This document shows positions 60,545-61,986 of a DNA stretch of 64,000 bases, piece by piece. The position numbers were made by a program, and so were the translations under genes. Numbering within the stretch: position 1 is the stretch's first letter; every line of letters starts with the position of its first letter. The notes beneath the pieces were generated by a model. It had not been told where the DNA came from and searched no databases. It was given only the letters and a program-made list of their open reading frames with translations. The DNA comes from Octopus vulgaris. Taxonomy: Eukaryota. Where the stretch lies: positions 82,770,001-82,834,000 of the forward strand of contig OX597815.1 of NCBI GenBank assembly GCA_951406725.2. Direction: 5' to 3'.

Positions 60545-60709
60545 CTTTATTTTAAGCAGCAGAAAATTCAACAAAATCTGTTACTCTGAGTTTCTCGTTG
60601 CCGTTCATCAGACAGTTTTTGCTAGATTCTAGCAAAAACTGTCTGATGAACGGCAACGAGAAACTCAGAGTAACAGATTTTGTTGAATTTTCTGCTGCTT
60701 AAAATAAAG
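60545..60709. repeat. Perfect palindrome (82-bp arms, 1-nt spacer) made of two opposed HHR motifs
   Basis: 60545-60626 is the exact reverse complement of 60628-60709. Flanked by (TA)n directly on the left and after about 72 bp on the right. Confidence 0.97.
60634..60681 (+). ncRNA. Minimal type I hammerhead motif (mirror copy on minus strand, 60573-60620)
   Basis: Stem I AAAA-A-CUGU/ACAG-A-UUUU; CUGAUGA at 60643-60649; A-CG-GCAA-CG-A; GAAA; stem III ACUCAGAGU; GUA triplet (A60672). Confidence 0.72.
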
Positions 60710-61986
60710 CATATTACTCTACCACTGGTATTTGAGTACTCTTTTTTTCCACCTTGTTTCACATTTATGTGTTTACTCCGGTATATATATATATATATAT
60801 ATATATATTTGTATATATATATATTTATATATATATACATATATATATATATATATATATATATATGTATATATATATATATTTATATATATACATTTAT
60901 ATATATACATATATATATATACTTACACATATATATTTTTATGTGTATATATATATATATATATATATATATAAATTTATATATGAGAAATAAATACTTA
61001 ATCGAGTATATGCACTACGTATCATATCGTGTATATGAATGTGTATGTCTCGGTGTGTATGTTCGTATATTAACAGTAAATACGCATACTTACTTATATA
61101 CAAAAAGTGTTAGTGTATGTGAGAGAGGAGAATTAGCGCCAACCTATAAGTAAATGAGGGGAGAAGAGAAGCAAATGTCTGTATGATGTCACTTCCATCT
61201 CATTTAGCATCACATTAGCCATACCCATTTGAAGGATTGGTTGACCTGGTACCCACACGATCCAGTGCTTTGAATGACTCGAATATGTGCATAAATAATT
61301 AATATGCCGTATGTTATTTGATTAGTGTAGACTGAAGGAGCATCTGTAGAATTTGACAAGCTCTATGCAATTACCCCTCCCCCACATCTGAATATATAAG
61401 TTAAACGGAACAGAGTCAGTTATGTCTGCCAAACCAGAGTGACTCCCACTGTCTGCCTATCTGGAAGGCTGTCTTTTTCTCTTTCTTCTTCACCTATTTT
61501 ACAAGCTTGTGTGTGTGTTTGTACATCTATCTATCTATCTATCTATCTATCTATCTATCTATCTATCTATCTATCTATCTATCTATCTATCTATCTATAT
61601 CTATTTCTTGGTATATTTGGCTAACTGCCTGTTTGTCTGACTGCCTGACTATCTATCTTTCACCCTCACTCTCTCTCTCTCCTTTTCTCTCTCTCTGTAT
61701 TGTATATATATATATATGTATATATATATACATATACATAGACACATATGCATGTATATATGCATATGTATGAACATAATACAAATACACACGCATACAC
61801 ACATACTTGCATACACACATACACGCACACATTATGAACTACTTCCAAGAGTTGATTTCATTATATTTATCTAAGACTTCGTTGCTTATGCATTGTTTAT
61901 TTACATTTTAATATACACATAGGTATATACGTATACATACATACAAACATAGAAATATATATATATATATATATATATATACCACT

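Follow-up and report, generated by a model that had tools for sequence, protein, structure and literature searches.

A hammerhead-bearing palindrome in (TA)n interpreted as a 5'-truncated, head-to-head stub of a Hydra-clade Penelope-like element

The palindrome and its hammerhead motifs

The window, i.e. the whole stretch of 64,000 nucleotides that was analysed, contains an exact palindrome at positions 60545-60709, with arms of 82 nt and a centre of 1 nt. It is the sole exact palindrome of its kind in the 64-kb window (arms of at least 18 nt, loop of at most 11 nt, non-simple sequence). The right arm extends 72 nt beyond the palindrome, to 60781, and (TA)n adjoins both outer ends. The first-pass annotation had described a palindrome of two opposed hammerheads with a 1-nt centre, a one-sided tail and (TA)n anchoring, and the window sequence confirms each of these points. 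Positions within the element are numbered from q1 = 60628. PLE stands for Penelope-like element, and the features are as follows.

60447-60544, no strand: left (TA)n target microsatellite; (TA)n flanks nearly all tabulated copies
60545-60626, minus strand: short arm, from q82 to q1, ending at the first fixed 3' end
60566-60626, minus strand: hammerhead motif; core starts at 60611, predicted cut after 60582
60626-60628, no strand: head-to-head junction at the 5' edge, q-1 to q1, a likely start of one RNA class
60626-60688, plus strand: hammerhead motif with extended stem I, core at 60643-60649, 2-bp stem II, GAAA at 60660-60663, stem III at 60663-60671 and predicted cut after 60672
60628-60709, plus strand: palindromic part of the long arm, q1-q82, with AATAAA at 60703-60708
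60710-60781, plus strand: 72-nt PLE 'tail', ending at the second fixed 3' end
60782-60985, no strand: right (TA)-rich target microsatellite
11331-12130, no strand: companion locus, a head-to-head insertion of a second Hydra-clade PLE family with a tail of ~75 nt on the left

In both arms there is a type I hammerhead motif comprising CUGAUGA (at 60643 on the plus strand and 60611 on the minus strand), GAAA and a GUA triplet, so that the conserved core, the three stems and the NUH triplet of this type are all found and the minimal hammerhead that had been called from the letters is borne out. Stem III is ACUCAGAGU and stem I has 4 bp plus an extension, which in the predicted fold can close at q-1:q61 (A(q-1):U61). 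In element numbering the core occupies q16-22, stem II has 2 bp closed by A.A, and the predicted cut falls after q45. The Rfam search detected no hammerhead family, its only matches being hairpin-driven miRNA models below threshold. The layout of the plus-strand motif matches the Hydra hammerhead table in the supplement of PMC8557442. In the same supplement, the loop 2 listed for Penelope-2_NV matches 9 of the 10 positions between core and GAAA (60650-60659).

Two or three such structures had been counted in the 64 kb. Two stand, 60545-60781 and 11331-12130; the third inverted pair (57065-58584) falls away, being 89% identical, made of a different repeat and not anchored in (TA)n. Several 89%-identical copies of a ~240-nt repeat lie there in both orientations, again without (TA)n anchoring (57065-57302 and 58347-58800); its resemblance to mollusc SINEs suggests a SINE family. 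A tRNA-like head near 57855-57925 was not called by ARAGORN, which found no tRNA gene in the window.

The parent element and its clade

Copies were counted by pattern matching in the 2.8-Gb genome, with a 29-nt hammerhead core as the pattern and the reversed pattern as control. The core has 3,867 exact matches genome-wide and the control none. Same-strand neighbours 3.35 kb apart bracket a 727-codon RT/GIY-YIG ORF, into which the tail sequence leads after following the pLTR in tandem copies. Of 7,999 candidates scored, 1,761 are homologues of this ORF. A protein model built from 118 sequences (pLDDT 92.5) finds its best PDB structure match in TERT (3du5, E 7e-10, TMq 0.33), other RTs following close behind, and this model match supports the telomerase-related RT in a single ORF that characterizes EN+ PLEs. 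The last 158 residues resemble GIY-YIG clusters (atlas matches 0.95, GIY-YIG making up 11% of members in the named cluster), and the GIY-YIG residues Y599, Y614, G616, E689 and N702 are invariant across the 118 sequences; atlas clusters and invariant residues together identify a GIY-YIG endonuclease at the C-terminal end. Pfam and PDB sequence searches with the 727-codon ORF gave no match; PF01541 was matched by family 2, the family of the companion locus, at E 0.004, below the cut-off, and family 1, that of the palindrome, was without match. A viral fold search of the parent protein returned only generic RT/RdRp folds.

The motifs RWK, DKT, CxCx5C, CxxC and CxH are present, their W, D, K, Cys and His residues being 99-100% conserved in the 118 sequences. 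CX2-5CxxC and CCHH are absent from the parent protein and its GIY-YIG core segment holds no cysteine. The same five motifs without CCHH are given as defining features of the Hydra clade (PMC8557442). By its sequence, the parent is classed as a Hydra-clade PLE with a unit of 3.35 kb, a placement made by motifs plus a by-eye match of long blocks to Hydra-1_Obim. An initial reading as Neptune clade was dropped, the motif set fitting Hydra. Partial tandems forming pLTRs were found (two tandem loci and 69 copies with tail-to-UTR read-through), as were inverted 5'-truncated copies with a one-sided tail of 71-72 nt, insertion in (TA)n and the hammerhead itself. The size given for the clade, generally under 3 kb, is exceeded by family 1 and respected by family 2 (2.58 kb); it is a tendency only, one listed element reaching 3,045 bp (PMC8557442).

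Hydra-clade PLEs, including Hydra-1_Obim and Penelope-13_HM (Craig et al. 2021, PMC8557442), share with the present family the RWK, DKT, CxCx5C and CxxC/CxH motifs, the (TA)n target and a type I hammerhead with an actc-N-gagt stem III. Penelope-13_HM is listed there with a 5'-truncated inverted copy and a hammerhead on both strands. The present family differs in its 3.35-kb unit, in a stem II of only 2 bp, in its thousands of copies and in that about half of the sampled arms are reduced to the pLTR end; its tail of 71-72 nt is twice as long as the 30-40 nt published for PLEs. A 16-mer of family 1 is absent from the supplement of PMC8557442. PLEs or the Hydra group are already described in the literature as having inverted copies truncated at the 5' end, a tail on one side, (TA)n as target and the stem III with 1-nt loop (PMC8557442).

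The palindrome is almost certainly a stub, i.e. a 5'-truncated head-to-head insertion of a Hydra-clade PLE in (TA)n, a retrotransposon origin that the first-pass annotation had missed. It is the shortest form of an already known layout. The element is a new family of a known clade and the palindrome, as an object, is ordinary. This family is larger than the exact-pattern counts, with subfamilies, since the commoner variant in public contigs differs from the window copy at q50 and q74 (L032:5196 and 5220).

The companion locus at 11331-12130 has the same tail-out, (TA)n-anchored layout and the same stem III, as had been claimed; that stem is a published trait of the Hydra clade. The accompanying view that the two loci are otherwise unrelated fails, the parent proteins of families 1 and 2 being 45% identical. 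Family 2 has 3,480 exact matches and a 717-codon ORF. It forms arrays of at least four 2.58-kb units (L232, G000:C1:57207800-57217700), and its ribozyme, in the window copy and in the array copy alike, has a long stem II and the core variant CCGAAGA. A decayed fragment at 20065-20354, followed after ~300 nt by a short TA run, is 35% identical to the endonuclease end of the Hydra protein (E 1.6e-7) and is probably a third, older family.

The 5' edge and the proposed RNA templates

Arms do not end at random on their 5' side. Among the first 100 of the 3,867 core matches, 31 arms end at q-3 to q3, 14 at q4-16, 5 at q-139 to q-4 and 50 further on. When 52 head-to-head joints were classified, 28 were short-short, 20 long-long, 4 intermediate and none short-long, against 23 short-long joints expected if arms stopped independently. 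The join to (TA)n is at the edge in 72 copies but, in 4, at a better-matching site, the TA run that the element itself has 5-14 nt upstream. Of 20 such copies that were fetched, 19 are solo, without a partner arm; the edge therefore needs no partner arm. In family 2, for which 26 arms were scored from 30 loci, 8 end 11-19 nt before the core and 5 over the next 230 nt.

On sequence grounds, the edge at q-1 is somewhat more probably than otherwise the start of an RNA class. It sits in CCATTCT, which we take to be initiator-like, with TATAGA 27 nt upstream. The Penelope promoter lies in this region (PMC2377424). Of 23 informative rows counted by hand, 13 have a G before the edge (p 7e-4, with a crude null), as do 53 of the first 100 of 234 rows, although in several inspected cases it can come from the partner arm. 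Since copying of the cap is known to leave a non-templated G in L1 (PMC11702581), there is a hint of a cap-derived G at the edge. At L187 (G000:C15:5410100-5410850) three starts at the 5' edge are repeated within the junction, and every one of them has a G before it.

The full-length copies, which read from the tail into the 5' UTR (n = 69), behave differently: one starts at q-3 to q3, two at q4-20, 53 run past the edge and 13 stop before it. On this second pass the edge is crossed by 53 of 56 copies, compared with 55 of 100 in the first pass (Fisher p 6e-8), some of the 69 possibly being internal array units and so not independent. These 53 of 56 rule out that every copy was templated by one transcript starting at q-1. 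Because full-length copies pass the edge, it cannot be set by the sequence as such. This weakens a rival reading, in which the RT falls off where the extended stem I of the ribozyme has its foot, and not at an RNA end. The edge does coincide with that foot in the predicted fold, where the stem closes at A(q-1):U61, and both families stop just upstream of the ribozyme. Such a structural stop accounts poorly for the absence of short-long pairs and for family 2 ends that overshoot the predicted stem foot by up to ~9 nt; we regard it as unlikely.

The contrast between short and full-length copies points instead to two classes of template: one a linear RNA that would start at the edge, the other circular or multimeric. 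A more specific form of this reading, that Hydra-clade PLEs use a capped linear RNA starting 16 nt before the core together with a circular unit-length RNA, is put forward tentatively and we would not bet on it. The capped RNA would yield dead-end 'strong-stop' cDNAs, seen as solo stubs and palindromes; the circle, possibly closed at the ribozyme site, would yield long and tandem copies that run past the start and tend to stall after one turn. A start at q76-84 is seen in seven of the 69 full-length copies (scan-corrected p ~0.001, post hoc), namely L335, L340, L347, L357, L359, L369 and L321. This lies one unit away from the first RT start, as would be expected after a single turn round a circle. 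If true, the reading with two templates would provide evidence, from the genome, for the circular PLE intermediate that has long been proposed. A search of titles and abstract openings, outside subscription papers and Repbase, returned nothing on a 5' edge or strong-stop stubs in PLEs.

Joining of the arms and fate of the hammerheads

How PLEs build inverted and tandem structures has been named an open task (PMC8557442). For the second arm, the long pairs are informative. Fifteen were scored, each with one end of each kind (q82 and q153). In 9 of them (counting one tie) it is the tail arm that extends further 5', in the other 6 the tail-less arm, and in these 6 each arm holds sequence absent from its partner. 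Such private sequence favours two primings over fold-back, and we consider it quite likely that the two arms were made by two primings. The GIY-YIG domain would nick both strands of (TA)n, as may be supposed from the in vitro work on Poseidon, and the RT would start at two internal RNA sites 71-72 nt apart, leaving a one-sided tail. Both cDNAs would stop after ~83 and ~155 nt, where the RNA would begin, at q-1, and their 3' ends would be joined through short microhomology. The hammerheads would be passengers in the palindrome, long and tandem copies likely coming from another template without an end at q-1. With the Poseidon element of Anolis (PAc), both target strands are cut and extended in vitro, the tail is bounded by two internal RT start sites, and hammerhead cleavage is dispensable for insertion in vitro (Frangieh et al. 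2024, PMC11167929). PAc belongs to another clade and its start sites lie in the ORF (PMC11167929), whereas those proposed here lie upstream of the ORF.

In a fold-back, which would involve the same parent, the second arm would arise when one cDNA primes itself, or would be copied from an antisense template. This was the reading given to junction palindromes in rotifer Penelope elements (Arkhipova 2013, PMC3846280), and many junctions here do fall on CTAG or other short microhomologies, the commonest short junction being centred on the self-complementary CTAG. The Penelope elements of Adineta vaga share with the present family the inverted pLTRs, the optional tail, the junction palindromes and TATA/Inr-like pLTR motifs; self-priming was invoked there (PMC3846280), whereas the arm extents here favour two primings. 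Those 6 long pairs, like many of the short pairs, have a tail-less arm that extends further 5' than its partner and a tail on that partner alone, so that neither arm was copied from the other. Self-priming is not possible with a 1-nt loop, and solo copies without a second arm stop at the same edge. Fold-back is accordingly considered quite improbable. Taken as a whole, a PLE stub made by two primings that ran off at the likely 5' end of an RNA is the best explanation, and a reasonably likely one. The value of the finding lies in this read-out of PLE mechanism, carried by junction statistics: the family offers hundreds of junctions that discriminate between two primings and fold-back, and a template end hit by short copies and not by full-length ones.

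Head-to-head matches with cores at most 60 nt apart number 593 + 223, i.e. ~816 with a few nested double counts; the earlier suggestion of a reproducible integration mechanism was right. The arms' 3' ends are fixed at q82 or q153, against (TA)n; the junction centre varies between copies. Could the palindrome itself move, as a MITE-, retrozyme- or viroid-like unit that multiplied from one master? The window's exact junction does recur in 19 of the 50 listed places, its own included, at separate places on C1-C5. Yet junctions are highly varied, in 4 of the 19 both arms have a subfamily variant, and the hairpin is predicted to trap the ribozyme. Within the class, the unpaired base matches the tail arm in 9 of 15, the short arm in 5 and is unclear in 1; because it sides now with one arm and now with the other, this class arose repeatedly and not from one master copy, and a mobile palindrome is highly improbable. 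At L009 (G000:C1:4677795-4680823) one short palindrome occurs twice, 728 bp apart, probably through a local duplication. Identical arms had been taken to imply a very recent event; the identity stands, the recency does not, 82 identical bases being insufficient for it. Arm identity says little about age because 44 of 87 short pairs (roughly de-duplicated) have arms identical over 67 nt.

An assembly or library fold-back artefact has next to no probability: no public contig among the pieces listed bridges the centre with 31 nt on each side, but the arms are unequal, with fixed, biologically defined ends and different flanks on both sides, and form a continuum up to 3-kb arms across many contigs. 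Twelve of 13 joints in public contigs come from run X12; their loose ends look like ligation linker, and the joints were left unused.

A viroid-like ambisense ribozyme RNA is a circular RNA replicon that is conserved and whose two polarities both carry active ribozymes. The analogy drawn with such RNAs does not hold at the genomic level: the centre varies from copy to copy, the arms are exact antisense of each other, and the full hairpin is computed at -146.8 kcal/mol versus -8.3 kcal/mol for the active ribozyme fold. Non-LTR retrozymes have the same type I hammerhead and a proposed PLE origin (PMC7229834; bioRxiv 10.64898/2026.07.22.740005). As described there they form head-to-tail arrays of short units, whereas among the first 100 core matches no such arrays occur and same-strand neighbours are ~3.35 kb apart; this identity was set aside.

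The minimal hammerheads of metazoan PLEs are likewise of type I with a palindromic stem III and predicted to act as dimers (Cervera and de la Pena 2014, PMC4209133). Their stem II has 7-8 bp with G10.1-C11.1, versus 2 bp closed by A.A here. Opposite-strand hammerhead pairs lie 100-700 bp apart in Schistosoma, and a circular template was proposed in the same paper (PMC4209133); the cores here are only 31 nt apart. In folding computations without tertiary terms, the exact active monomer fold has a probability of 4e-5 and the two stem III strands pair at -7.4 kcal/mol. These predictions are in line with dimeric ribozyme action and agree with the earlier remark that took stem III as a sign of dimeric cleavage. 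Junctions near the cut site were once considered as a sign of cleavage in vivo. Of 179 found, 50 were mapped and 14 of these end at q43-45, but equal microhomology also exists at q34 (7 junctions) and q27 (3 junctions); the pile-up is inseparable from microhomology and gives no clear sign of cleavage in vivo. In any RNA that reads through the palindrome, from either side, the antisense arm is made first; because of this order and the stability of the hairpin, the hammerheads are predicted to be locked in it and the palindrome to be inactive. If transcribed, hundreds of such near-perfect hairpins could be a source of dsRNA.
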